This document shows positions 1 to 25,747 of a stretch of DNA of 35,354 bases, piece after piece. The first letter of the stretch is position 1; each line of letters begins with the position of its first letter. This stretch comes from a virus. A model generated the notes under the pieces. That model did no database searches. It saw only the letters and a program-made list of their open reading frames with translations, and was not told where the DNA came from. The translations under genes and the position numbers were made by a program. The stretch lies in UHGV virus genome UHGV-0125936; one strand, 5' to 3'.

Positions 1-3000
1 AACCGTAGTTCTCAAACGTACCGCCCTTATCCAGCCTCCACCCGACTGAGCCAGCGACATAGTTATTGGACTGGATGTAGTTGCCGATCTTGGCGTTGCT
101 GATGGTGCCATCACCTATCAGCGCGTCTCTGATGAACACCTGCCCGTTCTGAATAACGAAAGGAAGGGTCACCGTGGCTCCGGCCTGGTGCGTTACGGCG
201 AAGCGGTCAGCCAGGAAGATGACCTGTGACTGCATGCCGGATGGCGTGTTCTCGACGCCGATCCCCATCCCTGCGGCGTAATACTGTCCATTGCTGGCGA
301 CGCCAACCTTGATGTTATACATCGCTTTCAGATCACCATTAACGTTCGCTATGGCCTGAGCGTTGGTTGTGATGGCTGATGTGTGTCCGTTGACGGTCGC
401 CGTGATACCGTTTATCTGCGTGGCCGTGGCCTGCTGATAATCGGAGAACGTCTGGTTCAGGCTGTTGATGGATGCCTTGTTGCCGTTCACGTCAGTCTGC
501 AAACTCAGTAGCGAACGCGCCGTTGCCTCCTTCTCGTTGACGATCACCTCATCAATGCGGTCCAGCTGCGCGCTGTTACCGGCGACGGATGCAGACAGCG
601 TTTTGCGCGCGGCCACCTGCGCCAGGTTGCCCTGAATAATCGCGATAGCGGAGTTCTTCACTCCCCCCGTCATGCCGTCCACAGACACGCTGATATTATC
701 GATACGCTGACCCAGTGCGGTATCAGCAGTCGCCACTGTCTGCTCAAGTTCGTTCAGAGAAGAAGACACATCTCCGACCGTGCTCGACAGGTTTGTAACG
801 CTGGTCTGAACCTTCCCGATATCCTGGGCGTTTTTGGCGATTTCCTGCGCCTGTTGCGCCAGTTCGTCGTTGGCCTGTTTGATGTCGTCAGCCATGCCAG
901 CAATTTTTTCATTGCTGTCTACCGCGTTCTCGATCAGGTCTTTGAACGTATCGGAGCCTTTCATGTCCTCCAGGATTGCATCGGTGATGTCGGATACATC
1001 GATGCTGGCCTGCCCGCGCACAAAGTCTGTATACCCTGACTCGTTTCCGCTGCGGTCCACCAGCTGCGCGCGGTACCAGAAAATTTGCCCTGCCTTAAGG
1101 CCCATCTGCTGATACTTGCGCTGCGGATAGGGTACGTCTGCCAGCAGCATCGCATCGTCTTCCGTCCCGGTCAGGCTGTACTGAATTTCCGTCTTCAGCG
1201 TGTCGTCGGTGTTCGCCGGGAATCCCCAGCTCAGCTCGATACCGAAAACCACATTATCAGAAGCGATGAAGCCGACCGGTTTCGGCGGATTGCCCACTTT
1301 ACCCGTAAGATTTACTTCTGATGATGTCGCCCATACTGATGAAACGTCGCTGGCGTTCACCGCCCTGACACGGACCAGATAGCGACCCGAGTAGATGCCC
1401 TGCACTTCAAAGCCGAGAGAAGACGTTCGGGGCACACTAATCCAGTTGCCGCTGTCACGCCGCCATTCCGCCTCGTAAGCAACTGCACCCTGAACAGAAT
1501 CCCAGGCAACGCGCATAGTGGTAATCGCAATGTTCTGGTTAACCGTAGAGTAACTGTCTACGACAATATTTCCTGGGGGAGCCTGAACCCCTGGCGGAAT
1601 GACACTGACTGGCCGCTCGTCCAGTCTTGCGCCGGTATCAACAGCGGAATAGATATCAGGGTTGTAAGTCGTCCCGGTGACCTCGAAAGTACCGTCGTTG
1701 TTGTCCCGCGTTCCCGTAACACGGAAAAGCGCTATAAACAGATCGTCAGAGTCCACACCCCAGTTACATTCAGCCTCCGGCGTTTCGCTGTAGGGTGTGG
1801 TGACAGTGACTGTGTTTCCGTTAACGGCCTGGACCGTTCTGGCCTGAGCTGTGCCTGACGGAAGATTCAAAAACAGCCGGTTCCCGGCCTTCACATCAGC
1901 GGCTCGATCGAGGGTTATGTTGCGGCCGTTAACCGCACTCACCCTGCCACCGATAGTTCTTCCGGCCAGCTCGTTAGCTGCCACGCCGATCACCTCACCA
2001 ACGGGGGGAACGTCCATGCCCGTGCTGAAGGTCACCACCTCGCCGATACCGTTAGTGAGCAGCGCCCAGCGCCCCCGCCGGTTTGCCTCTGACTGCCTGG
2101 TGCAGCCGATCGCAGTCATTTCGAGCTGACGATAATCGAAGCGCATGGCCAGATCGTTATCGTAAACAGGCTCAGGCGTGTCTTTATAGTGGTTGGCTGG
2201 GTCTGACCAGTTCACCAGCGCGGCAGTGTTTCGGGTGGTTTCACTCGGATCCGCAAAGGTAAATTTTCCTTCAACAACGCTGGCGTGGTTATAGATGTGC
2301 CACACATCCCGTGGCATATCAGCCAGGACATACATCTTATTGTCGCCCCAGTACGTCATGCCGCGAAATATACCCGCCAGGTCACGAAGTACGGTCCAGG
2401 CGTCATTACGGTCCTGGATATAAACGTTGCAACGAAAACGAGGCTCCGTCCCGCTGCCGCCCTTGCCGTCTGGTACCAGTTGATCGCAATACTGGGCGAT
2501 GCGATAAAGTTCCCATTTGTCTATCTGAGTCGCATCGATTCTTTGACCCAGCCCGAAGCGCTCGTTCAGAATGATGTCGTAATAAATCCAGGCAGGGTTA
2601 TCCGTCCACGCCCATTTAAATACGCCCTCCCATGTACCAGAATAAGTGCGGGTTTCGGGATCATAAGTATCAGGTACACGGATGATTCGCCCTTTCGGAT
2701 TGCACACAACCTGAGGAATGCCATTAGGGAACTGCTTTGCGTCAAACTCTACATACAGCAGCGCTGTGTTAACGTAGCGAAGTTTGGCGTCAATAATTTC
2801 AGTAACGGCCACAACGCGCATGGTGTCGACGATATTCACGCTCGTGGAATCCGGCGTGATTCTGCGAACCCGCAACTGCCATCCAGTCGAGGCTTTCGGA
2901 AGATTGACGCGGTGACTGCGCTCATAAAGCGACGTGGTTTTGTCATCAACAGCACCGTTAACCACCGTTTCATACGGCCCGCCATCGACCGACAGATCGA

Positions 3001-5900: not shown

Positions 5901-8900
5901 TTAAACTCCCTTGATTAATCGCCACAGAGGCGAGCCCGGCATGCTGGCCTGTTCGTTAATGACGCCAGTGATGGCATCTTTCAGTTGTCTGCCAGCGGCG
6001 CCGGCGGTTCCCTGACTTGCTGCCTGTGGTGATCCACCCTGAATATTGATATCGCCGAAGTTAACTGAAGGCACACCGCCGGAGACCTGCGGAGTACCAA
6101 CTGCCCGAACGCCCAGCGAACCATCAGCGGCGCGCGTAAGCGGCATAATGGCTTCCGGACCAGCCTCGGCAAAAACGCCTGCGCCTTTGGCAAAAGCAAA
6201 CAGCTGAGGCGTCTGAAAAACGCCATTGCTGTAAGCGCTCAGGGACGGAGAGTCGTAAACATTACCCTTCGCATTAAAGGTAAAGTTCGCGCCGGCATTC
6301 TGAATAGCGGTACCGCTGCTGGCGGTTGCGGCTGACGAGGCGCCAAAACTGAACAGTGATCCAATTGAGCTGACGCCATTAGCAACAGCCATATTCACCA
6401 GGACGTTCTGGATAATCTTCAGTACGCTGACGCCCCAGTCCTTCCAGCTGTCAACGTTGCCATTGAGCATGTCGGTGATCGTGGTGACCGCGCCACCCAT
6501 GGCCTGCTTCATGCCGTCAGCGGCCATGGAAGAATAATCAGTAGCTTCGTCCACCCAGTTCGCATAACCCTCAGACAGTCCCGTCATCCAGTCGTCACGC
6601 TGCGCATCAGAAGCTGCGTAATATCCCTCCTGGTCGAGCAGGCGCTCTTCGAGGTAGCGCTTATTAAGTGCCAGCCCCTGCTGATAGAACGTCTCGTCGA
6701 TTTCACCAGCCTGACGCTGGCGGAGAAGATCGGTATTCTTCTGCTCAAACTCCTTACGCAGATTGAACTGCTCCTGAAGTCTTTCACGGAACCTGGTTCC
6801 CTGCCCGTATCCCAGCAGTTGCGCTTCATTGGCTGCGCGGGCGCTGGCGTTACTGTCGGCAAGGTTGGCTTCGTAATTTCGCAGTTGCTCACGTAATTTA
6901 ACCTGGTCAATCAGCGTAGCATTCTGCAATACCGTCTTTTTCTGGGCTTCTGTCAGAGAAGCAAGTTCGCCCTGGCTGACCTGGTATTTAACCTTCGCCA
7001 GTTCAGTATTCTGGCCTTGCAGGGCAATCTGCTCTTTTTGCTGTTTGATCAGCTTGTCATAGGCATCAGCTGTTTTTTCCGCCTCGGATTTCCCGCCCTT
7101 ATGGCGGCTTGAGTCACGAATAGCTTGCAACTGCCTGGCTGACTCAACTTCCATGCTGACATACTTCTCACGCCAACCAGCAGGGAGATTAAGGTCAGAT
7201 GCATCGAATTCCGCCTGCTTGCGGGTTTTGTCCAATCCCTTAAGACCGGACAACTCAAGCTGTCGCTGCGCCTTGTCTATAGCTTGCTGCTGCTTATTAT
7301 CAAGTGCAGGAAGTACAGGCCCTGCATATTTTGGTGGGGACACTGCTGTAGACTGTCTGGAAACCTTGTTCAGACGGTCATACATCTCTGTAAGAGAACT
7401 TACGGCGCCAGCCATTTCTACTGTTTTATTTATAGCCTGATCAGTTATGTCGTTTATTAACTGTTGTGTTTGCTTTCTTTTATTGAGCATTTGCTCAAGT
7501 CGGCCTTCTTCAACCGCAAGTTCTGAAGCAAACTCTGCTGCTTTCTCAACCGCATCGTTATACAGCCATGTTCCCTCTGAAGCAGAATTGGCTGCTAATT
7601 TTGCGTTATAAAGTTGATTGGATAATTCAGCAACTTTCTGCTTCTGCTGTTCAATCGCACTATTTTGAGCATCCAGTGAAATATTCGCCTGTCCAAGGTT
7701 GGCGGATATCTGCGTCTGAGACATTGATTTCAGATTATCTCGTACCTGCTCGATTGTGTCCGCATATTGGATTGCAGATTCCCTGGCTTGTTCTTGGCGT
7801 TGATACATCATGTACCACGCCCCAGCACCCAACATTAAAATTCCTGGCAAACCACCAACTAACGACAAAAGCCCCGTAGCGCCAGACTTGAATAAATTCA
7901 TTACCGATGTTGATCGGTTGAGTGCTTCTTGCGACGCTGATACTGCTTTATTTGACTGAACGAGAGTGGCATTGGCGGCTATCATTTCGCGCCGTTTGGC
8001 AATAGAATTTTGTGTAGCTGTCGCTTCTGCATTTGTGTTTTTTGCAAGTTCCAACTCGGATAGCGAGAGCTGATAAGCACGCTCGGCAGCAATCGCATCT
8101 GCTGCCGCCTTTCGTTGTGATTGGGTAGCAGATTCAGCCCTTGCAGATGCGAGCGCAATTTCGTTCTTTCTGGCATCTATTAATTGCGCCGTTTGGTTCC
8201 CAAGATCGCCAAACATCCCTCCAAGATAGCGAGCTCCACCTATTGCAGCCAAAGCTCCGGCAGCCGTAGCCACAGTGTCGATATTGTCAGAAACTGTATT
8301 CAATACAGCAACAAGAGCACTTGTCGCACCAGTAGCTTCATTAGCTCCACCTACCCATGCCATGAAAGCATTTTCGACTTTCGTCGTGGCAGCAGAAACG
8401 GTCTGCGGCATTGCCTCAAATTCACCACGCATAGTGCCAAGTTGACTTATCAGGGCCGGGACAACTTTATCTGCGGTTAGCATCCCCTGATCGGCCATTG
8501 CCTTCAGATCTTTACGAGCTACACCCATCCCAGCGGCCAGCGCACGGATAACTCGATCACCGTTTTCGTTAACAGAGTTGAATTCCTCGCCCCGCAGAAC
8601 GCCCTGAGCTAATGCCTGACTAAACTGGGTGATAACAGAACTTGCCTCTGCCGTGCTGGCGCCGGATAGCTTTAGTCCAGTAGAAATGGCCTCGGTTACA
8701 TCCAGAACTTGCTGCGAACTGTATCCGTATTCACGCATTGATGCGGCGGAACGCGCAAAAAGACTCGCATTATCAGAGAAGGCGGTTCCGGTTCGTTGGC
8801 TAATATCCATCAGCGCCCGCTGAGACTCCGTGAAATCATCAGACGATTGGGAAGCCTGCTTTAGCCTGGCATTAACAGAGCTCCATTCATCGGCCAGCGA

Positions 8901-19121: not shown

Positions 19122-20579
19122 CTATTTGTGTTTAAACCAGGCGCATTCTTTGCCAATACCATCAGTCTTAAAAACTGTGTGGATACGCGGGCCGGTGACA
19201 ATGCGATCGCCAAGCGATTTAGCAACAATGCCAAAAGCGATCATATCCCCCACCGCGGCGCCAGCCTGTTCTTTCTTCCAGAATCGATAACTTTCGATCC
19301 GGTAGTAAAGACGGATGATGCCGTGAGCGAACGCCATTACATCAGCGCGGGTGCCACCCAGCAGGCCAGCGTTAAGCATCACATCGCCGCGGTGCGCTTC
19401 AATGAATTCCTGATAGATACGCTCAGGATGATTCTGTTTCGCCCAGGTGTCGGCGTATGTCTTCGGTTCAGAACCGACGTAAACATTCCCGGGCTGCATT
19501 TCTTCCCACGGTGCGCGGAGCATTTCGACATCGGTACCATCAGTACACCAGACGAACCGGTATTCAGGGTGATCTCGCAGGTGCTGCCAGATATGCAGCC
19601 AGCGCCGGAAGTAGACATTCATCTTCACCTCAGGAACGCGGTACAACTCAACATCTGCCGGTGGCGTCTGCAGTTCATCCACCAGCGCGATACGTCCACA
19701 CTGCCGGAGTGATGCGGCCCATTTAGCCAGCATCTCAGGCGAGGCCGCCATTTTCGTACCGCGCTGCGGGTCAGGCTGGCTGGTGAGCAACGTTGTGATT
19801 ACCACGTCGCGCTGCTTCCGGTATTCAACGTAACCGGTAAAGCCGGTATCACGTCGTTCGTTGTGGATCTTCACGTTACGTTCCACCAGCGCCTGGCGGT
19901 CGGGCCTCGGCACTGAACGCTCTACGGCCTCATGCTCATCGAGAGAATGGATCAGCTTTTCTGAACCGACGACATCAGCGTACGCCCACGTAGTCAGTCC
20001 TGCGTTATGGATGCGCAAGGCGAGGTCGCTGTGCTCGTACATGCCGCGACCATAAACCGGATCGAATCCGCCTACCTTCTCGATGGCGCTGCGGTGGTAA
20101 TAAAGCATCACGCCGCGCTGCCCGGTGTACGCCACATGCTGATCGTCACGGTAAAGCACCGAAAGGTCATTCAGCTTGTTCGTGCCAGCAAGATCGAGAA
20201 ACTGGTAAGCCAGGTGCGGCTCTGGTGATTCGATGTAAGGGAGGTGCCAGTTATCAGCGATAGGCCAGGCGTCATCATCCCATAAAAACAGATGCTCACA
20301 CCCGGCATCCATCAGGGCTGTCAGGCTGGCGTTCTTCGACGCAACAATGCCGAGTGATGTTTCATGGCGAAGCAGCTGCACGCCGTGTGGAACTACCGCT
20401 GCAGGTTTTGAACCATCATCGACTACCACCACCAGCGCACCGGCGGGAAGATGCTTCATGTGCTGTTCGAGTGCTCGCTTTAAAACGTCTGCGCGCTGAT
20501 GCGTCGAAATGGCAATGCCGATCCGTGATGAAACGACGCTGGCGGGAGCGTATGGGACACCATCAATAGTGACCTGCAT
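19122..20579 (-). CDS. Two-domain glycosyltransferase (N-terminal family-2-like GT-A domain; C-terminal second transferase-like domain)
   Basis: VVVVDDGS and LWDDDAW (DXD) motifs in N-terminal half; C-terminal half has CTDGTDV and NAGLLGG; RBS GGGAGG. Confidence 0.6.
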   Translation of the reverse strand: MQVTIDGVPYAPASVVSSRIGIAISTHQRADVLKRALEQHMKHLPAGALVVVVDDGSKPAAVVPHGVQLLRHETSLGIVASKNASLTALMDAGCEHLFLWDDDAWPIADNWHLPYIESPEPHLAYQFLDLAGTNKLNDLSVLYRDDQHVAYTGQRGVMLYYHRSAIEKVGGFDPVYGRGMYEHSDLALRIHNAGLTTWAYADVVGSEKLIHSLDEHEAVERSVPRPDRQALVERNVKIHNERRDTGFTGYVEYRKQRDVVITTLLTSQPDPQRGTKMAASPEMLAKWAASLRQCGRIALVDELQTPPADVELYRVPEVKMNVYFRRWLHIWQHLRDHPEYRFVWCTDGTDVEMLRAPWEEMQPGNVYVGSEPKTYADTWAKQNHPERIYQEFIEAHRGDVMLNAGLLGGTRADVMAFAHGIIRLYYRIESYRFWKKEQAGAAVGDMIAFGIVAKSLGDRIVTGPRIHTVFKTDGIGKECAWFKHK

Positions 20580-20590
20580 AAAACCTCCCG

Positions 20591-21469
20591 TCAGATTCCT
20601 CGCGACCGTGTATTCCAGAGGATGCCGCCTGGCTTGAGCGCATTGCGAAGAGCATCGTTCACCGCTTCGTGCATCGCCTGTTGCAAGCCAACTACTGAAG
20701 CTGTTTGCGCATCAATCTTTGCCTGGAGGGCTGCGAACAAATCGCTTTCGCGTACGGCGGAGATAATGGCTTCGCACATCTCATCATTGAGGCTGGTTTT
20801 GGTGGCATTATTACCATCAGCGGGATTAGCCTTATCATGACTAATTGCTCCAGGGAAGCCACCAAAAGACAAACCAACATTGAATGTCGTCTTTTCATTA
20901 TTGCTGGCTGATTGAGCGGCTTCATGCACCTTATAGCGATCAGCCATAAACTCAACGTTGCTCTGGCCATCTTCAACTCCGATGGTCATGCCAGCTGCGT
21001 ACCGTTTGCCACCATAATCCACGTTCATCTTCACGCTGTAGTTCGTAGACAATGTGCCATTGCCGATCAGCGCCTCGTGGATGTAAGCCTTGCCGGTTTT
21101 ATCAACAAACCAGCCACCTTTAAGGCCATGAAGTGCGCAGCTGTTACGGATCTCTTCGTCCAGCGCCTCAATAATCTCTTCGGTATCGACAGAAGAAACC
21201 CCTTCGATCCAGTCACCGGCTCGCCAATCTCGTGCTGAGCCATCTTCTGCAATTGGACGCAGGCGCACCTGCAATCTCTCACCAGCTTTGAGGCCGGAAA
21301 TAAGGCATACGGTAGCTGGCCAGAAGATGCGTTTTTTCATAAGTCGGCCATCTTCATGAAGGCATTGCAGTTCTAGCACCGCGCAGCCACCCGGCCATTT
21401 CCATTCGACGTCCACACCAAAAGGTTTGGGAGTGGTTTTTACGTAAGGGACGATTGAAGGTTCTGACAT
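20591..21469 (-). CDS. FN3-like + J-fibre-motif protein (paralog of a distal segment of the tail-tip J protein)
   Basis: 293 aa from MSEPSIV (RBS AAGGAAAA); KRYAAGMTIGVEDGQSNVEFMADRYKV and IHEALIGNGTLS match J in this window (QYYAAGMGIGVEN...FLADRFAV; IRDALIGDGTIS); N-terminal beta-rich FN3-like region. Confidence 0.5.
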   Translation of the reverse strand: MSEPSIVPYVKTTPKPFGVDVEWKWPGGCAVLELQCLHEDGRLMKKRIFWPATVCLISGLKAGERLQVRLRPIAEDGSARDWRAGDWIEGVSSVDTEEIIEALDEEIRNSCALHGLKGGWFVDKTGKAYIHEALIGNGTLSTNYSVKMNVDYGGKRYAAGMTIGVEDGQSNVEFMADRYKVHEAAQSASNNEKTTFNVGLSFGGFPGAISHDKANPADGNNATKTSLNDEMCEAIISAVRESDLFAALQAKIDAQTASVVGLQQAMHEAVNDALRNALKPGGILWNTRSRGI

Positions 21470-21729
21470 TTTAATTTTCCTTTTAGACGTGAGCCTGTCG
21501 CACGGCAAAGCCGCCGAAAGTAATCGGTTTGCCCAGGCTCACAGCTGAAAGACTTTCTTTGATGTGCGCGTGCGATGCGCATAAATGCCGCGCTATGCGG
21601 TTACTGTCTGAATATCAGGGTATTACTTCGTTCTAACCCCGGGTAAGGTAAGCATTCAGCCCGTCAGTGGTGGGACACTGATTCACGCAAAGAGGAGGAA
21701 TGGCTGAATAACTCTTCGAAGGAAAAAGG

Positions 21730-22194
21730 ATGATCACCAAAGTAAAAATCAAGTTTATTTCCCCTATTGATGGATCGGTATCAGATACCCCCACGGAGCA
21801 TGCAATTCCCGTAGTTCCATTGACAGTATGGCCAAGTAGCTCAAAAGATATAAACGTTTATAAACCAAATGGATTGAAGGCTGGTGCCTACGCACTTATA
21901 GATACCGGAGCAGATATTTGCTATGTGGATTCAGACTTTGCTGACGATTTAAAACTCCCAATCGCGGAAAAAACAACTGTGAGCGGAGCCACCTCAACAA
22001 TAGAAACTACAGTTCGGCATGCGGTAATATCGTTCACTGAGGACGAAAGAGTTTTTTCAACAGAATTGACTTCAGTGCCATTGGTAAGTAACGGGAGAAA
22101 ATTCCAGGTCGTTTTCGGAATGCAACTAATTAAAATGGGCGCCCTTACGATGGATTTTTCCAATCAAGTATTTGAGTTAACATTTTTTAACTAA
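21730..22194 (+). CDS. Retropepsin-like (clan AA) aspartic protease, moron on opposite strand
   Basis: ALIDTGAD active-site motif and downstream VVFGMQLIKMGALTMDF flap-like motif; RBS AAGGA; AT-rich relative to flanks. Confidence 0.65.
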   Translation: MITKVKIKFISPIDGSVSDTPTEHAIPVVPLTVWPSSSKDINVYKPNGLKAGAYALIDTGADICYVDSDFADDLKLPIAEKTTVSGATSTIETTVRHAVISFTEDERVFSTELTSVPLVSNGRKFQVVFGMQLIKMGALTMDFSNQVFELTFFN

Positions 22195-22432: not shown

Positions 22433-22690
22433 CTAACAGTCGTCATCTGGACGTGCTACAGCTCGACATGCGGCCATGCATGCGCGCTTCATATCGAGCT
22501 CTGCCTGGCGTATCCACTCAACAGCTTCCCAGTCGTGAGGAGTGCGTTGTACATCACCTACATGCTCACGCAGCAACTTAATAAACTGGCGGCTGAGATC
22601 CTTAAACTGGTTCATCTTGCCGATTTCACCGTAAGAGAGTTCGCGGTAGCCCTTAACGGTGCTTCCGTCCTGTGGTTTAGCTTCGCTCAT
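22433..22690 (-). CDS. Hypothetical protein downstream of spanins
   Basis: 85 aa from MSEAKPQ; no recognisable motif. Confidence 0.35.
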   Translation of the reverse strand: MSEAKPQDGSTVKGYRELSYGEIGKMNQFKDLSRQFIKLLREHVGDVQRTPHDWEAVEWIRQAELDMKRACMAACRAVARPDDDC

Positions 22691-22756: not shown

Positions 22757-22972
22757 TCACTCCTGTTTCTGGCAGTTCGCCTGCCACGCTTTGTTATGCG
22801 CCAGGATGTCTTTCTTCGTCTGGCGGTCCAGAACGTCAATATCGTGGTTTGTCAGATAGATAATCCGGCTCCACAGGCAGCCCGTATCAATCACCACCGG
22901 GGCGGGTGAAGTTTTCGCGCAGCTCGCGATCAACATCGTCATCAGGCATGTGATTAACAGTCTGCTGGACAT
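22757..22972 (-). CDS. Rz1: Outer-membrane spanin Rz1 (lipoprotein), embedded/overlapping with Rz
   Basis: MSSRLLITCLMTMLIASC lipobox-like signal in alternative frame overlapping Rz 3' region. Confidence 0.55.
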   Translation of the reverse strand: MSSRLLITCLMTMLIASCAKTSPAPVVIDTGCLWSRIIYLTNHDIDVLDRQTKKDILAHNKAWQANCQKQE

Positions 22973-23162
22973 TACTGGCCTCTTTAGTGACTTCCGCTTT
23001 ACGTTCTGCCGCCGCAACGGTCGCCGCTGCATTCTCTTCGGTGCGCTGCTGGTTGGCTTTAGCCTCTGCTTTACTGGTGCCGCGAATATGGCCCAGGCCG
23101 AAAGCGCCAGCGATGGCGGCAATGACTGCTGCAGCAATACCAAATAAAGTTTCAAACCCCAT
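22887..23162 (-). CDS. Rz: Inner-membrane spanin Rz
   Basis: MGFETLFGIAAAVIAAIAGAFGL N-terminal TM then charged coiled-coil; immediately downstream of endolysin. Confidence 0.6.
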   Translation of the reverse strand: MGFETLFGIAAAVIAAIAGAFGLGHIRGTSKAEAKANQQRTEENAAATVAAAERKAEVTKEASNVQQTVNHMPDDDVDRELRENFTRPGGD

Positions 23163-23169
23163 AGTGACC

Positions 23170-23799
23170 TCACACCAGGACAGATTTCGCCAGGTTAAAC
23201 AGCGCGCGGCGTTTATCCAGCCCGTTACGTCCGCCATTGATAAGCAGCGTGACGCGCTCCACGTCGCCGGAATGGAGCAGGCATCCGTGCGAGACATAGA
23301 ACCATGCAGCTGAGCGAGCAGCATATTCATCCTGTTCCAGCAATTCAGGCTGGGTTACAAGGTCCAACTTCAGCGCGTGGCCACAGTTGCGGTAATTGCT
23401 GAGCCCGGTGATTTGCTTCAGGCCGCGACCGCGATATTTCCAGCCATCACCAGAAACCTGGTTGCCCAGGTTCTTTTTGCCCCACTCACCGCCGTAAACC
23501 AGATTGGCAATCGCTTTCTGATTTGCCGGCTGTGTTGCCGTTCTGCCAAGCGCGGCGGCCTGCTGTGCAGTAATGCGATGCTTGCCGAACGTAGGTACCA
23601 GGTTTTCTGCCGCATAGTTCAGGTTTTCCACCAGCCGGGTGAAACCGCCGGACTCATGGCCCATCTGCGCGATAAACATGGCCTGATCGAGCGGCGCGGT
23701 TATGCCGAATTCCTTCATTGCAGCATCGATATAGTGAAACCAGCGCACGGCTAGACCGGCGCTTATACCTGCCGCCTTTTCAAATTGTGTTTGGTTCAT
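23170..23799 (-). CDS. Endolysin, glycoside hydrolase family 19-like
   Basis: 209 aa; FIAQMGHESGGF...YGGEWGKKNLGNQ...GRGLKQITG motifs typical of GH19-type phage lysozymes. Confidence 0.8.
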   Translation of the reverse strand: MNQTQFEKAAGISAGLAVRWFHYIDAAMKEFGITAPLDQAMFIAQMGHESGGFTRLVENLNYAAENLVPTFGKHRITAQQAAALGRTATQPANQKAIANLVYGGEWGKKNLGNQVSGDGWKYRGRGLKQITGLSNYRNCGHALKLDLVTQPELLEQDEYAARSAAWFYVSHGCLLHSGDVERVTLLINGGRNGLDKRRALFNLAKSVLV

Positions 23800-24077
23800 T
23801 AGTGCCTCAGATGATCTACCAGACGTGCCAGATTTCCCCGGGCCCTCATAACGGCGGCGCAGATAAGGAGGTTTGCCACCACCACCAGCCAGCTGGAGTC
23901 ACGATAGAGACCGAAGATAAACTGCAACGGGATAACGGCATAAACCAGTACGGTTACATACGCCATGATAGAGATGAAAGGACGATGCCGGGCGCCATGT
24001 CGCTGGTAGAACATCAGAACGACAACAATTACCGCGCAGATAAATGCATTAAAGAATGCAGTCAGCTCACCTGCCAT
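23799..24077 (-). CDS. Holin-like membrane protein
   Basis: 92 aa with about 3 hydrophobic segments and basic C-terminus; immediately upstream of endolysin. Confidence 0.55.
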   Translation of the reverse strand: MAGELTAFFNAFICAVIVVVLMFYQRHGARHRPFISIMAYVTVLVYAVIPLQFIFGLYRDSSWLVVVANLLICAAVMRARGNLARLVDHLRH

Positions 24078-24456
24078 TTCCCCCTCCTCCGCGTAAACGC
24101 GAGAAAAAGCTGAACAGGCTGTTCAGATCCTGGTTATTAAGATAAGTTAGGATTTTGATACACAGGGCAGACAGAATCACTGCTCCGAGTGCATCCAACG
24201 GTTTTTCATATCGCGATGCGGCATTTAGCAGTGAGCCAACAAATCCAGCCCCAAGCACCCCAACGATAAACGACGTCAGAAAATACCCAGCCAGTCGTGC
24301 ACGAGACAGGTTCGTTGCTGTTGCGACGTAGAACACCGCACCACCAAACGCCCCAAACACCACACCGAAATCTGTATGAGTAAAGACGCCGTACAGGACT
24401 GAACCCAGCAGGCCGCCGCCGAGAACTGCGCCGGTGCCGGTTAATGGATCGGACAT
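24067..24456 (-). CDS. Putative holin / lysis-associated multi-pass membrane protein
   Basis: 129 aa from MSDPLTG (RBS AAGAGGGGG), Gly-rich TM segments; ORF-track start 24507 would lie inside a terminator hairpin. Confidence 0.45.
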   Translation of the reverse strand: MSDPLTGTGAVLGGGLLGSVLYGVFTHTDFGVVFGAFGGAVFYVATATNLSRARLAGYFLTSFIVGVLGAGFVGSLLNAASRYEKPLDALGAVILSALCIKILTYLNNQDLNSLFSFFSRLRGGGGNGR

Positions 24457-24502: not shown

Positions 24503-24530
24503 AACAAAAAAGGCCACCGTGAGGTGGCCT
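24503..24530 (-). terminator. Rho-independent terminator downstream of small moron gene
   Basis: 8-bp perfect stem aggccacc/ggtggcct, loop gtga, then U-run on - strand. Confidence 0.55.
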
Positions 24531-24566
24531 ATATATGATTGAAATTTTTGATTTGGTAAGGCTTGA

Positions 24567-24761
24567 TCAGACCGGCAATGCCTTCGGCTTGCCCATGTGA
24601 TATGTAACAAGGCTGCTTTTGCTGCCATCTTCCCAGACTGTAGAGCTCTCGGTGATCATCAAAATCACCCAGCCTTTAGAAAGGCCCAAATTGACTTGCT
24701 CCACATCCTCTACCGTCCGTACTTCCTGAATTTTACTCAACAAGTTTTCATCTGCGCTCAT
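24567..24761 (-). CDS. Hypothetical small protein (moron between tR' and lysis genes)
   Basis: 64 aa from MSADENLL; AT-rich; bracketed by two terminators. Confidence 0.4.
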   Translation of the reverse strand: MSADENLLSKIQEVRTVEDVEQVNLGLSKGWVILMITESSTVWEDGSKSSLVTYHMGKPKALPV

Positions 24762-24823
24762 CAACTGACCCTCAGTTAAAAAACACAACATAACAAACGC
24801 AATGAAGAAAAACCTTGCTGGAA

Positions 24824-24848
24824 ATAAAAAAACCCGCAACGTGGCGGG
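24824..24848 (-). terminator. tR'-like terminator downstream of pR'
   Basis: Stem cccgc/gcggg with 6-nt loop followed by 7-U tract on - strand, about 45-70 nt downstream of candidate pR'. Confidence 0.55.
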
Positions 24849-24892
24849 CTTTTAGAGGTTAATTATCTACAGGCGTTATACTCCATAATCAG

Positions 24893-24922
24893 AAGCATAC
24901 AGGACAGTTTTATGCAAAGTCA
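24893..24922 (-). promoter_or_regulatory. Candidate late promoter pR' (-35 TTGACT, 18-nt spacer, -10 TATGCT) with qut-type region
   Basis: Hexamers read on - strand immediately downstream of Q stop. Confidence 0.4.
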
Positions 24923-24964
24923 ACACTAACGTGCAAAAAAGTGTCGCCATTTGCTCCGATCATA

Positions 24965-25747
24965 TTAATAAGTTGTCGCCTTCTCAAACTCTACTGCCGC
25001 GTGACGCTCCCCCTGGCGCAGCGTGTCCACCAGCATTTCATAAAAGGGTTTCCAGTTGCGTGACCATGAGGACTGATGGAGGTCCGGGAGACGCTTCAGA
25101 ATGGCACGGTGTACCGTCGCCGAGGAGATTGCAGAGAAGCCATTACCAGAGCAACGTTCACACGTTTTGAAAACCGGTGCGCCGCGGTCTTTAGTCGCTT
25201 TGCGGTCCAACACTTCTCCTTTACCGCCACACCTGCACCGGGCAAGGATCACTTTCTTTCCTCCGCATGTTTCGCAAACTCTTTTCACCAGCTCATTTTT
25301 AATCTTTGGGGCCACTACTTCGGCACCGTCGGCGTCGAAAATACCAGGATGTTTAACCACATCCTCATTCCCGGAGATAAACCCGGTACCGCTGCAACTG
25401 TGGCATGTCACGCTGGTAGCCGCCGAACGGGAGTAATCAGCAAAGGCAAATTGCGCCAACATCTGCATGCACCATCCAAAATGCCCACCAGCTGCTTTGC
25501 GAACATTCTTTGGTGCCGTTTCCATCGCGTAACGAGCCAGCGCCTGAACTGCGAGCTGTTCATCTGTTTTGCTGATGCCGGCCTTGCCAAAGAAAGCAGC
25601 CAGGCCGAAGCGCGCACGGCTGCTGGTGGTGCCAATCGCCGCCATTACATCTGTTCCTGTAAGGCGGTCCGGAGAAGTTCCCTTCACGTCATCGCTGATG
25701 TGCATTCCCTGAGGACTAAAATGTTTGAGTGACGCTTCCAGTTTCAT
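24965..25747 (-). CDS. Q: Late antiterminator Q (phage 82/933W-like Q family)
   Basis: LTGTDVMAAIG, LAQFAFADYSRSAAT, multiple CxxCxGxG zinc-finger motifs, SWSRNWKPFYEMLV, matching recalled Q-family pattern; position between replication and lysis. Confidence 0.7.
   Translation of the reverse strand: MKLEASLKHFSPQGMHISDDVKGTSPDRLTGTDVMAAIGTTSSRARFGLAAFFGKAGISKTDEQLAVQALARYAMETAPKNVRKAAGGHFGWCMQMLAQFAFADYSRSAATSVTCHSCSGTGFISGNEDVVKHPGIFDADGAEVVAPKIKNELVKRVCETCGGKKVILARCRCGGKGEVLDRKATKDRGAPVFKTCERCSGNGFSAISSATVHRAILKRLPDLHQSSWSRNWKPFYEMLVDTLRQGERHAAVEFEKATTY

Follow-up and report, generated by a model that had tools for sequence, protein, structure and literature searches.

Do the two short frames that close the lysis cassette of virus genome UHGV-0125936 encode a two-component spanin pair, and how are the two genes laid out? 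We analyzed positions 22757..23162 (minus strand) of the window, which is the whole 35,354-nt stretch of DNA, where the initial annotation had proposed an Rz/Rz1 pair with the lipoprotein gene embedded in Rz. The locus is very probably a two-component spanin pair of the overlapped type and the last functional unit of the lysis cassette of a lambdoid prophage. Profile matches, a lipobox, and the cassette context bear out the pair as such, and the limits given for it run exactly from the start of Rz to the stop of Rz1.

The cassette lies on one strand in the order holin, holin, GH19 endolysin, Rz, Rz1. On the minus strand, the genes preceding the pair are a holin (Phage_holin_3_7; 23799..24077; PF05449, E 3.6e-20; phrog_217, E 9.5e-33), a second holin-family gene (Phage_holin_8; 24067..24456; PF16931, E 8.5e-33; phrog_198, E 1.2e-39), and an endolysin of glycoside hydrolase family 19 (23170..23799; PF00182, E 4.3e-07; phrog_181, E 3e-86), with a gap of 7 nt from the endolysin stop to the Rz start. 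A gene for a Q-like antiterminator is found directly upstream of the cassette, and the window also carries lambdoid replication genes and a repressor. This gene order recurs in 14 related loci, and both order and overlap are alike in HK639, mEp390, Fostie, KPP5665-2, AsXd-1, Chris1, and Yersinia phages. The design of a short Rz with an overlapping lipoprotein gene extends to distant Pantoea, Pseudomonas (AF), Xanthomonas, and Serratia phages. Scanning the cassette for promoters and terminators gave nothing bearing on the spanin pair. Terminator-like hairpins inside the locus are on the plus strand, the wrong one for the spanin genes, and the hairpin total is ~1.7 sd above the shuffle mean (8 versus 4.5, sd 2.1).

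The Rz-like (i-spanin) gene (22887..23162, minus strand) begins with ATG, encodes 91 aa, and ends with the stop codon 22889..22887. Its Shine-Dalgarno-like GAGGT (23167..23171, minus strand) overlaps the endolysin stop codon and is likewise marked for HK639_70 in Table S1 of Kongari et al. 2018 (PMC6139136). The protein consists of an N-terminal tail, MGFE, one transmembrane helix, and an Ala/Glu/Lys-rich helical domain of 67-68 aa, the C-terminal end of which is the conserved motif DDDVDRELRENFTRPGGD. The transmembrane segment, LFGIAAAVIAAIAGAFGLG (23091..23147, minus strand), corresponds to residues 6-24, the single strongly hydrophobic segment of the protein (Kyte-Doolittle 19-residue mean, 2.21). 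Family membership is apparent from a match to the phrog_1026 profile "Rz-like spanin" (E 1.5e-32, residues 1-88 on profile positions 5-84 of 85), and 2520 protein clusters are homologous to the protein, most of them with 91 aa. A profile search against solved structures returned nothing meaningful, the best match being a designed helical protein (E 5e-4). AlphaFold2 (AF2) places helices at residues 3-26, 31-70, and 74-85 with low confidence (pLDDT 58); we rely only on the all-helical character of this model and based no fold search on it. Cysteines are absent from the protein and its homologues, and the i-spanins of HK639 and mEp390 are listed without a coiled coil (Kongari et al. 2018, supplementary file 4; PMC6139136). 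Across 117 homologues, the N-terminal tail has a net charge of -1 and the 15-residue stretch that follows the helix one of +1 to +2. This distribution is contrary to the positive-inside rule for an N-in/C-out anchor, and the same doubt about topology was flagged by the SpaninDB curators (Kongari et al. 2018; PMC6139136).

The o-spanin (Rz1-like) lipoprotein gene (22757..22972, minus strand) runs from an ATG at 22972 to the stop codon 22759..22757 and encodes a precursor of 71 aa, of which 54 aa would form the mature protein. A Shine-Dalgarno-like AAAGAGG (22979..22985, minus strand) is located 6 nt 5' of the ATG, within the Rz coding sequence. The N-terminus, MSSRLLITCLMTMLIAS followed by CAKT, is predicted to comprise a 17-residue signal peptide and then Cys18, with which the mature protein should begin and which is the predicted site of lipid modification. 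Both this signal peptide and the lipobox L-I-A-S-C (22919..22933, minus strand), which the initial annotation had correctly read as LIASC, were assigned by a single method, a PS51257-type rule. The lipoprotein signal that had been proposed as a check is predicted under that rule, with Cys18, with Arg4 in the n-region, and with an h-region devoid of charge. Residue +2 after the lipobox is Ala, and there is no Asp at +2, as sorting to the outer membrane demands. Of all ATG sites in the six frames of the 35-kb window, only 3 both comply with the rule and begin an open reading frame (ORF) of 40 aa or more, that of Rz1 among them. Later starts (Met78, Met80, and GTG93/94, as in RefSeq) were rejected because they lose the n- and h-regions or the lipobox itself, and they also lack a conserved Shine-Dalgarno sequence.

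Rz1 matches the phrog_1275 profile "Rz-like spanin" (E 6.4e-32, residues 1-70 on profile positions 4-72 of 81). Its homologues form 349 protein clusters, and tblastn with the Rz1 frame retrieved 178 phage records. S17 and C18 are invariant, as are C18, C32, and C67 in 120 homologues, and the lipobox Ser-Cys, C32, and C67 are retained in homologues at 38-47% identity. The protein contains only 2 Pro, and AF2 predicts a small helical domain with a pLDDT of 86-95 for residues ~30-67. Fold matches of this model in BFVD are annotated O-spanins; in a profile search against solved structures nothing meaningful was found, the best E value being 0.033.

What the analysis shows is the structure of the two genes with their signals, the conservation of both frames, the families to which the products belong, and the place of the pair in the cassette. 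The spanin label itself draws on signals and synteny, from which we infer a spanin function for the HK639-type family, together with topology, lipidation, complex formation, and outer-membrane disruption. According to the mechanism that we propose, the single N-terminal helix of the 91-aa Rz-like protein would serve as its inner-membrane anchor, with the helical domain of ~67 residues projecting into the periplasm. Translation of the 71-aa Rz1 precursor would start from a separate ribosome-binding site within Rz, in the frame shifted by one base, and export, lipid modification of Cys18, and cleavage by signal peptidase II would follow. The two proteins would bind across the periplasm, the contact on the Rz side probably being the conserved C-terminal motif D-x-x-V/L-D-x-E/Q-L-R-x-x-F/W-x-R and that on the Rz1 side probably the small folded helical domain. 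After holin and endolysin have cleared the peptidoglycan, the complexes would fuse the outer with the inner membrane and disrupt the former, completing lysis. Periplasmic cysteines for intermolecular disulfides occur in ~96% of two-component spanins (PMC6139136), and here they would be C32 and C67 of Rz1, with none in Rz. These two invariant and presumably periplasmic residues may repeat the arrangement of T4 PseT.2/PseT.3.

There is a small chance that the HK639-type spanins depart from the lambda paradigm. On the side of the i-spanin, the grounds are its very short length, the lack of a recorded coiled coil, the lack of Cys, and charges favoring the opposite orientation; on the side of the o-spanin, a compact, disulfide-capable helical domain takes the place of a proline-rich unstructured chain. 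Two forms of departure are conceivable. The i-spanin may insert against the positive-inside rule, with the complex spanning the envelope in some other geometry. Alternatively, the membrane protein may face the cytoplasm, with the lipoprotein acting on the outer membrane or otherwise and having no trans-periplasmic partner.

Quite improbable, in our view, is the explanation that the lipoprotein is not a spanin and acts alone as a prophage moron, the Rz-like C-terminal domain being cytoplasmic and having a different role. Such a lipoprotein would serve in superinfection or entry exclusion or in serum resistance, like Cor, Bor, or TrbK. The charge bias of the Rz-like protein, which favors N-out/C-in, fits this explanation, and a full-text literature search found no experimental work on the HK639-type i-spanin/o-spanin family. 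Rz1 also has a match to TrbK, an entry-exclusion lipoprotein, in NCBIfam (E 0.0039, 17.2 bits), but the match falls below the curated cutoff of 23 and covers residues 5-42, about half of it signal peptide and lipobox, so that we rejected TrbK identity. Against a solo lipoprotein, the pair always directly follows the endolysin, including in non-lambdoid phages (Pseudomonas phage AF, Xanthomonas Langgrundblatt1, and Serratia Swain), the two genes remain overlapped across 38-47% protein identity, and the cassette showed no further spanin candidate. Moreover, the C-terminal motif of Rz is kept even where the overlapping Rz1 signal peptide differs, pointing to selection that acts on Rz itself in its role as partner.

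Returning to the spanin pair, we can place its layout among the known architectures. The lipoprotein frame does lie over the 3' part of Rz in another frame, as the initial annotation held, with an 86-nt dual-coding overlap (22887..22972, minus strand) in which the last 28 Rz codons and the stop cover the Rz1 signal peptide, the lipobox, and the first mature residues. The Rz1 start is offset by 190 nt from that of Rz (1 mod 3), that is, by one base. The pair is of the overlapped type (P2 lysB/lysC), not the embedded type (lambda), because Rz1 starts inside Rz in another frame and runs 130 nt past the Rz stop. A lambda-type layout, with the lipoprotein gene wholly within Rz, shares the internal start and the one-base offset and is nevertheless next to impossible here. 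The Rz stop (22889..22887) leaves 130 of the 216 nt of Rz1, which ends at 22759..22757, outside Rz; the definition of Kongari et al. 2018 (PMC6139136) assigns such a layout to the overlapped class; the homologues in HK639 and mEp390 are listed there as "ovl"; and the layout of P2 lysB/lysC is identical in kind. A sequencing error at the Rz stop (22887-22889) would be needed to rescue the embedded layout, yet the stop position is common to the 91-aa homologues.

The ORF list joins the Rz1 frame into an ORF of 138 aa with a GTG start (22757..23173, minus strand), which had been suspected of being a merged artefact. We reach the same conclusion, because 10/10 close homologues have in-frame stops in the upstream extension (22973..23173, minus strand), which is noncoding in this frame. 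For one real gene from GTG 23173 to 22757, with the 91-aa Rz or the internal start irrelevant, speaks that the frame is open for 138 codons in the window, but the likelihood of this is negligible: one to six stops lie 5' of the conserved ATG in the 10/10 homologues, GTG 23173 lacks a recognizable ribosome-binding site, the profile match covers residues 1-70 of the 71-aa product, beginning with the internal Met, and the upstream diversity peak falls on the third position of the Rz frame and not on that of the 138-aa frame.

That peak is part of a pattern seen when diversity per codon position was computed over 11 related loci. Where only Rz is encoded, nucleotide diversity is highest at Rz codon position 3 (0.49 versus 0.16-0.18), and where only Rz1 is encoded, it is highest at Rz1 codon position 3 (0.39 versus 0.18-0.20). 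Within the overlap, wobble-position diversity is lowered in both frames, to 0.28 and 0.19, compared with 0.49 and 0.39 in the single-coding parts. Because the wobble peak switches from the Rz to the Rz1 frame, both frames are taken to be under selection. The Rz1 ATG and its Shine-Dalgarno sequence (AAAGAGG, AAAGGGG, or ACAGGGG) are kept in 11/11 close loci, so that conservation of the Rz1 frame, the lack of which was to count against the pair, is apparent in these signals and in the three Cys. Although alternative-frame ORFs are common in GC-balanced DNA and gene callers omitted or shortened Rz1 in many records, an unexpressed chance ORF with a chance lipobox is scarcely credible given the phage protein family match, the 178 phage records and 349 protein clusters, the frame-specific wobble signature 3' of the Rz stop, the conserved ATG, Shine-Dalgarno sequence, and three Cys, and the mere 3 sites in the window that pass the lipoprotein rule.

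The suggestion that such a pair is easily missed in annotation also held. In a survey of 14 related GenBank/RefSeq loci, the position of Rz1 has no CDS in 3, an N-terminally truncated CDS in 7, and a full-length CDS in only 4. Five of the 7 truncated CDSs start after the lipobox Cys, and the other 2 keep the Cys with most of the signal peptide missing. The o-spanin gene of the HK639-type family is thus often overlooked or started after the lipobox, including in RefSeq HK639 and mEp390, where a truncated 49-50-aa product without a lipobox is at odds with the curated table of Kongari et al. 2018. That Rz-like protein clusters are ~7 times as numerous as lipoprotein clusters (2520 versus 349) suggests under-calling of the lipoprotein gene. 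Neither partner falls within a Pfam or NCBIfam family, NCBIfam matches being sub-threshold only, and many homologues in bacterial genomes are therefore named "hypothetical protein." The pair itself is already known, being ordinary and catalogued, with a close homologue curated in the spanin literature, and public data hold Rz-like proteins of 99% identity and a lipoprotein of 94%. As a routine end-of-cassette lysis function of a lambdoid prophage, the locus has little biological weight and is of practical value for annotation. The scientific interest left lies in the membrane topology and mechanism of short, apparently coiled-coil-less i-spanins.

Among known systems, the closest phage pair is HK639 gp70/gp71, with 89.8% nucleotide identity over the locus and 88% amino-acid identity between the o-spanins. 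A further curated pair is mEp390 gp51/gp52, and SpaninDB places the pairs in the HK639 i-spanin and "BcepNazgul" o-spanin families (Kongari et al. 2018; PMC6139136). The shared members HK639, mEp390, and AF suggest that phrog_1275 is this "BcepNazgul" family. For HK639 and mEp390, the same source records the class "ovl," lengths of 91 aa (i-spanin) and 75 aa (o-spanin), and an overlap of 86 bp, as well as an o-spanin signal MYSKLLTICLAMMLIAS, lipobox LIAS, and 2 periplasmic Cys (PMC6139136). The pair in the window shares with HK639 the 91-aa i-spanin with the same start context, the 86-nt overlap and one-base frame offset, the o-spanin with a 17-residue signal, lipobox (LIAS, then C), and two further Cys, and the order holin, holin, GH19 endolysin, Rz, Rz1, Acb2/Tad1-like gene. 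The differences are that Rz1 has 71 aa here and 75 in HK639, that its C-terminal tail is QKQE rather than QKPTEKKI, and that the Rz1 frame is open across the whole Rz gene here, whereas it contains stops there in HK639.

P2 LysB/LysC resembles the pair in that the o-spanin gene starts in the 3' portion of the i-spanin gene, in a different frame, extends past the i-spanin stop, and concludes the lysis cassette. LysB has 141 aa compared with 91 for the Rz-like protein, and no homology between them was detectable (BLASTP E 1.9). Rz1 has a weak match to LysC (24% identity, pairwise E 3e-05) that is dominated by the signal peptide, and it does not match the Pfam LysC model PF23793, which P2 LysC itself matches at 6.2e-18. 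With BLASTP and Pfam support absent or marginal, we rejected membership in the P2 family and regard the likeness as functional analogy only. In T4 PseT.3/PseT.2, the periplasmic domain of the i-spanin likewise has no Cys and the o-spanin has two conserved Cys, although the T4 genes are separated and those here overlap. Both Cys of the T4 o-spanin are required, and an intramolecular disulfide isomerizes into intermolecular links (PMC6139136).

Lambda Rz/Rz1, to which the initial annotation had pointed for comparison, proved not to be homologous by BLASTP (E 0.25 and 0.018, meaningless segments) or Pfam, as neither Rz nor Rz1 of the window matches PF03245 or PF06085 at E<=1, while lambda Rz and Rz1 match these models at 2.6e-54 and 2.9e-20. 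We accordingly rejected membership in the lambda family, and the resemblance appears to be functional and topological only. It consists of an inner-membrane protein with a predicted N-terminal transmembrane helix paired with a predicted outer-membrane lipoprotein, a one-base frame offset, and spanin genes that close a lysis cassette preceded by a Q antiterminator. Lambda Rz1 (46186..46368) is fully nested in Rz (45966..46427), whereas the two genes overlap here. Lambda Rz1 is also predicted to be unstructured, with a proline-rich region that is functionally required, and lambda Rz has two coiled-coil domains (PMC6139136). Unlike these, the Rz1 described here has 2 Pro and a confidently predicted helical domain, and its Rz partner belongs to homologues with no recorded coiled coil.

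The Rz/Rz1 spanin pair proposed in the initial annotation is real, as are both of its genes: PHROG matches, conservation and a lipobox point to a two-component spanin with its lipoprotein in another frame. The pair belongs to a cassette in which holin, holin, endolysin, Rz and Rz1 follow one another 5' to 3' on the minus strand, as seen from the ORF list and Pfam and PHROG matches. Preceding the pair are a Phage_holin_8 gene (24456..24067, -; PF16931, E 8.5e-33), a Phage_holin_3_7 gene (24077..23799, -; PF05449, E 3.6e-20) and a glycoside-hydrolase-19 endolysin (23799..23170, -; PF00182; phrog_181, E 3e-86), with a Q-like antiterminator gene (24965..25747; phrog_127, E 5e-102) upstream of the cassette and lambdoid replication genes and a repressor further upstream still. 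The tandem holin-family genes overlap by 11 nt (24067..24077, -), ahead of an endolysin that looks soluble. The interval between the Q-like gene and the first holin (24511..24987, -) contains two sites that resemble promoters and, at 24853..24828 and 24530..24511 (-), two strong terminator-like hairpins. It is reminiscent of the lambda pR'/tR' late-promoter region, and at its equivalent the phage HK639 record has three annotated terminators.

The Rz-like gene starts at an ATG at 23162, 7 nt past the endolysin stop, and its 91-codon frame runs to 22887 (-); a GAGGT upstream of this ATG overlaps the endolysin stop codon. The product consists of MGFE, the hydrophobic LFGIAAAVIAAIAGAFGLG (Kyte-Doolittle mean, 2.21) and an Ala/Glu/Lys-rich tail of 67-68 residues with the C-terminal end DDDVDRELRENFTRPGGD, for which AF2 predicts, at low confidence (pLDDT 58), helices 31-70 and 74-85. 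It matches phrog_1026 "Rz-like spanin" nearly end to end (E 1.5e-32), and its homologues, almost all of 89-92 aa, form 2520 protein clusters.

The Rz1-like gene begins at an ATG at 22972, 190 nt 3' of the Rz start and therefore offset in frame by one base. An AAAGAGG lies upstream of this ATG across a 6-nt spacer, and the 71-codon frame runs to 22757 (-). The product begins MSSRLLITCLMTMLIAS followed by CAKTSPAP, with the lipobox LIASC present, as claimed initially, at 22933..22919 (-). Its lipoprotein signal satisfies a PROSITE PS51257-type rule, having Lys/Arg among residues 1-7, no charge in the h-region and an [AGS]-Cys whose Cys is at position 18, and residue +2 is Ala, not Asp, the inner-membrane retention residue. 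In six frames of the 35,354-nt window, only three ATG sites that open ORFs of 40 codons or more pass this rule, 22972 among them. The protein matches phrog_1275 "Rz-like spanin" nearly end to end (E 6.4e-32), and its frame is found in 178 phage records by tblastn and in 349 protein clusters. AF2 models mature Rz1 as a confident small helical domain (pLDDT 86-95 at residues about 30-67), and annotated O-spanins of Pectobacterium, Escherichia and Proteus phages are among the viral models that it matches best in fold.

Selection acts on both frames. We aligned the locus with those of 10 phages (HK639, mEp390, Fostie, KPP5665-2, vB_EcoS-716R3, AsXd-1, CharmingMan, Chris1, ST16-OXA48phi5.3 and vB_YpM_39) and calculated mean nucleotide diversity per codon position by segment. 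Diversity peaks at Rz position 3 in the Rz-only part (0.49, against 0.16-0.18 at the other two positions) and at Rz1 position 3 in the Rz1-only part (0.39, against 0.18-0.20), and in the 86-nt overlap position 3 is damped in both frames (0.28 for Rz and 0.19 for Rz1; other, 0.17). Conservation of the Rz1 frame is also apparent in its ATG, kept in 11/11 sequences, and in its purine-rich ribosome-binding site, kept as AAAGAGG, AAAGGGG or ACAGGGG. Across 120 Rz1 homologues, the lipobox Ser-Cys, C32, C67 and the motif VVxDTxCxW...IYLTxxD...D.QTK.DIL.HN.....NC show no or almost no variation. The three Cys are also kept in homologues from Pantoea, Pseudomonas, Xanthomonas and Serratia phages (38-47% identity), where the lipoprotein gene begins in the 3' part of a short Rz-like gene and ends beyond it. 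The Rz C-terminal motif D-x-x-V/L-D-x-E/Q-L-R-x-x-F/W-x-R is kept in distant homologues in which the Rz1 signal peptide encoded by the same DNA is not, arguing for selection on Rz itself, and this motif is likely to contact Rz1.

The Rz1 frame does overlap the 3' part of Rz, with 86 nt in common (22972..22887), and it extends 130 nt past the Rz stop. An o-spanin gene is "embedded" when completely inside the i-spanin gene, as in lambda (Rz, 45966..46427; Rz1, 46186..46368), and "overlapped" when it extends past the i-spanin frame, as in P2 (lysB, 7922..8347; lysC, 8202..8492) (Kongari et al. 2018, PMC6139136). By this definition the pair is overlapped, not embedded as first titled; the initial interpretation was right in substance and wrong in its class label. 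It was also right to treat the 138-aa ORF as an artefact. In the ORF list, the Rz1 frame is extended in the 5' direction past the Rz start, as far as a GTG at 23173, an open stretch peculiar to the window: 10/10 close homologues have one to six in-frame stops there, several of them ≤25 nt from the conserved ATG. These stops, together with a codon-position diversity signature that is that of the Rz frame, mark the 138-aa ORF as an artefact.

That such a gene is easily missed is borne out by 14 related database loci, in 10 of which Rz1 is absent or N-terminally short. The gene is missing from three records (AsXd-1, vB_YpM_39 and Swain), starts after the lipobox Cys in five (HK639 RefSeq, mEp390 RefSeq, PdC23, Chris1 and ST16-OXA48phi5.3; products beginning V(V)IDT..., VKPIY... 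or VRIIY...), retains the lipobox without most of the signal peptide in two (Fostie and Langgrundblatt1) and is full length in four (KPP5665-2, 716R3, AF and CharmingMan). Deposited and RefSeq o-spanin CDSs named "Rz-like spanin" begin at a GTG past the lipobox Cys and so lack signal peptide and lipidation site (2157..2306 in retrieved locus L001, HK639 RefSeq; 2147..2299 in L002, mEp390 RefSeq; also L006, L012 and L013). The curated table has the longer, correct start, the curators remarking that HK639_71 "had a wrong start" (PMC6139136). For neither protein is there a Pfam or NCBIfam model, and nearly every named homologue of the two is a "hypothetical protein." Rz-like clusters outnumber Rz1-like ones seven to one (2520 versus 349), which fits systematic under-calling of Rz1.

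Directly 3' of Rz1 on the same strand, an 85-aa protein (22433..22690, -; longest ORF to 22753) matches the Acb2/Tad1 hairpin domain PF24729 (E 1.1e-10; 41.9 bits, cutoff 27), a family of phage "sponge" proteins countering CBASS/Thoeris signalling, as well as phrog_717 (unknown function); the HK639 record labels its counterpart, HK639_72, hypothetical. A 154-aa ORF on the other strand (21730..22194, +), situated between the lysis cassette and the genes downstream of it, matches the retropepsin-like aspartyl protease family PF13650 (E 6.9e-06; 27.1 bits, cutoff 24.3) and, below cutoff, retropepsin-like PF13975; since no PHROG family matches it, this ORF may be a moron gene. Further downstream, 19122..21508 (-) codes for a glycosyltransferase of 485 aa (phrog_1579, E 3e-252) and, with tail-fibre-like segments, a 292-305-aa protein of unknown function (phrog_13555). 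In mEp390, Fostie and CharmingMan, too, the lysis genes are closely followed by a glycosyltransferase gene, and the window region is possibly an O-antigen-modifying conversion module.

The spanin pair itself is already known through a near-identical catalogued homologue. At the nucleotide level the locus is closest to Escherichia phage HK639 (89.8% over 486 nt), and for HK639 and mEp390 the supplementary tables of PMC6139136 record "ovl" architecture, a 91-aa i-spanin, a 75-aa o-spanin, an 86-bp overlap, the o-spanin signal MYSKLLTICLAMMLIAS, lipobox LIAS, mature N terminus CAK and two periplasmic Cys. Apart from the o-spanin length, 71 aa in the window, these are the properties derived for the window pair. 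The HK639 and mEp390 o-spanins are placed in the "BcepNazgul" family, alongside phages 73, KL1, PY100, AF and others (PMC6139136).

Our analysis shows the gene structure, the translation, membrane and lipoprotein signals, the conservation and the cassette position; by inference, the pair would work like lambda Rz/Rz1. From known spanins (PMC6139136), the Rz-like protein would be anchored in the inner membrane and the Rz1-like lipoprotein in the inner leaflet of the outer membrane, the two would bind across the periplasm, and after holin and endolysin action they would disrupt the outer membrane via membrane fusion. In the window protein and 117 homologues, the Rz N-tail has a net charge of -1 and the 15 residues after the helix +1 to +2, a conserved distribution that opposes the positive-inside rule for the N-in/C-out anchor an i-spanin needs; the SpaninDB curators flagged the same doubt (PMC6139136). 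The predicted periplasmic part of Rz is short, no coiled coil is recorded for the HK639 and mEp390 i-spanins (PMC6139136), and a literature search found no experimental study of this spanin family. With these features a departure from the lambda model is conceivable, if improbable, and would leave the reading of the locus unchanged.

The comparison with lambda Rz/Rz1 suggested initially revealed no sequence relationship, BLASTP giving E 0.25 and a meaningless 25-residue match. Lambda Rz and Rz1 match PF03245 and PF06085 and P2 LysC matches PF23793, whereas the window proteins match none of these Pfam families. Against P2, Rz has no match to LysB, and Rz1 has a weak one to LysC, largely in the signal peptide. 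Rz has no Cys and Rz1 has two invariant ones, a pattern shared with T4 PseT.3/PseT.2, in which both Cys are required (PMC6139136). The window pair belongs to a third, separately catalogued sequence family and has the gene layout of P2.
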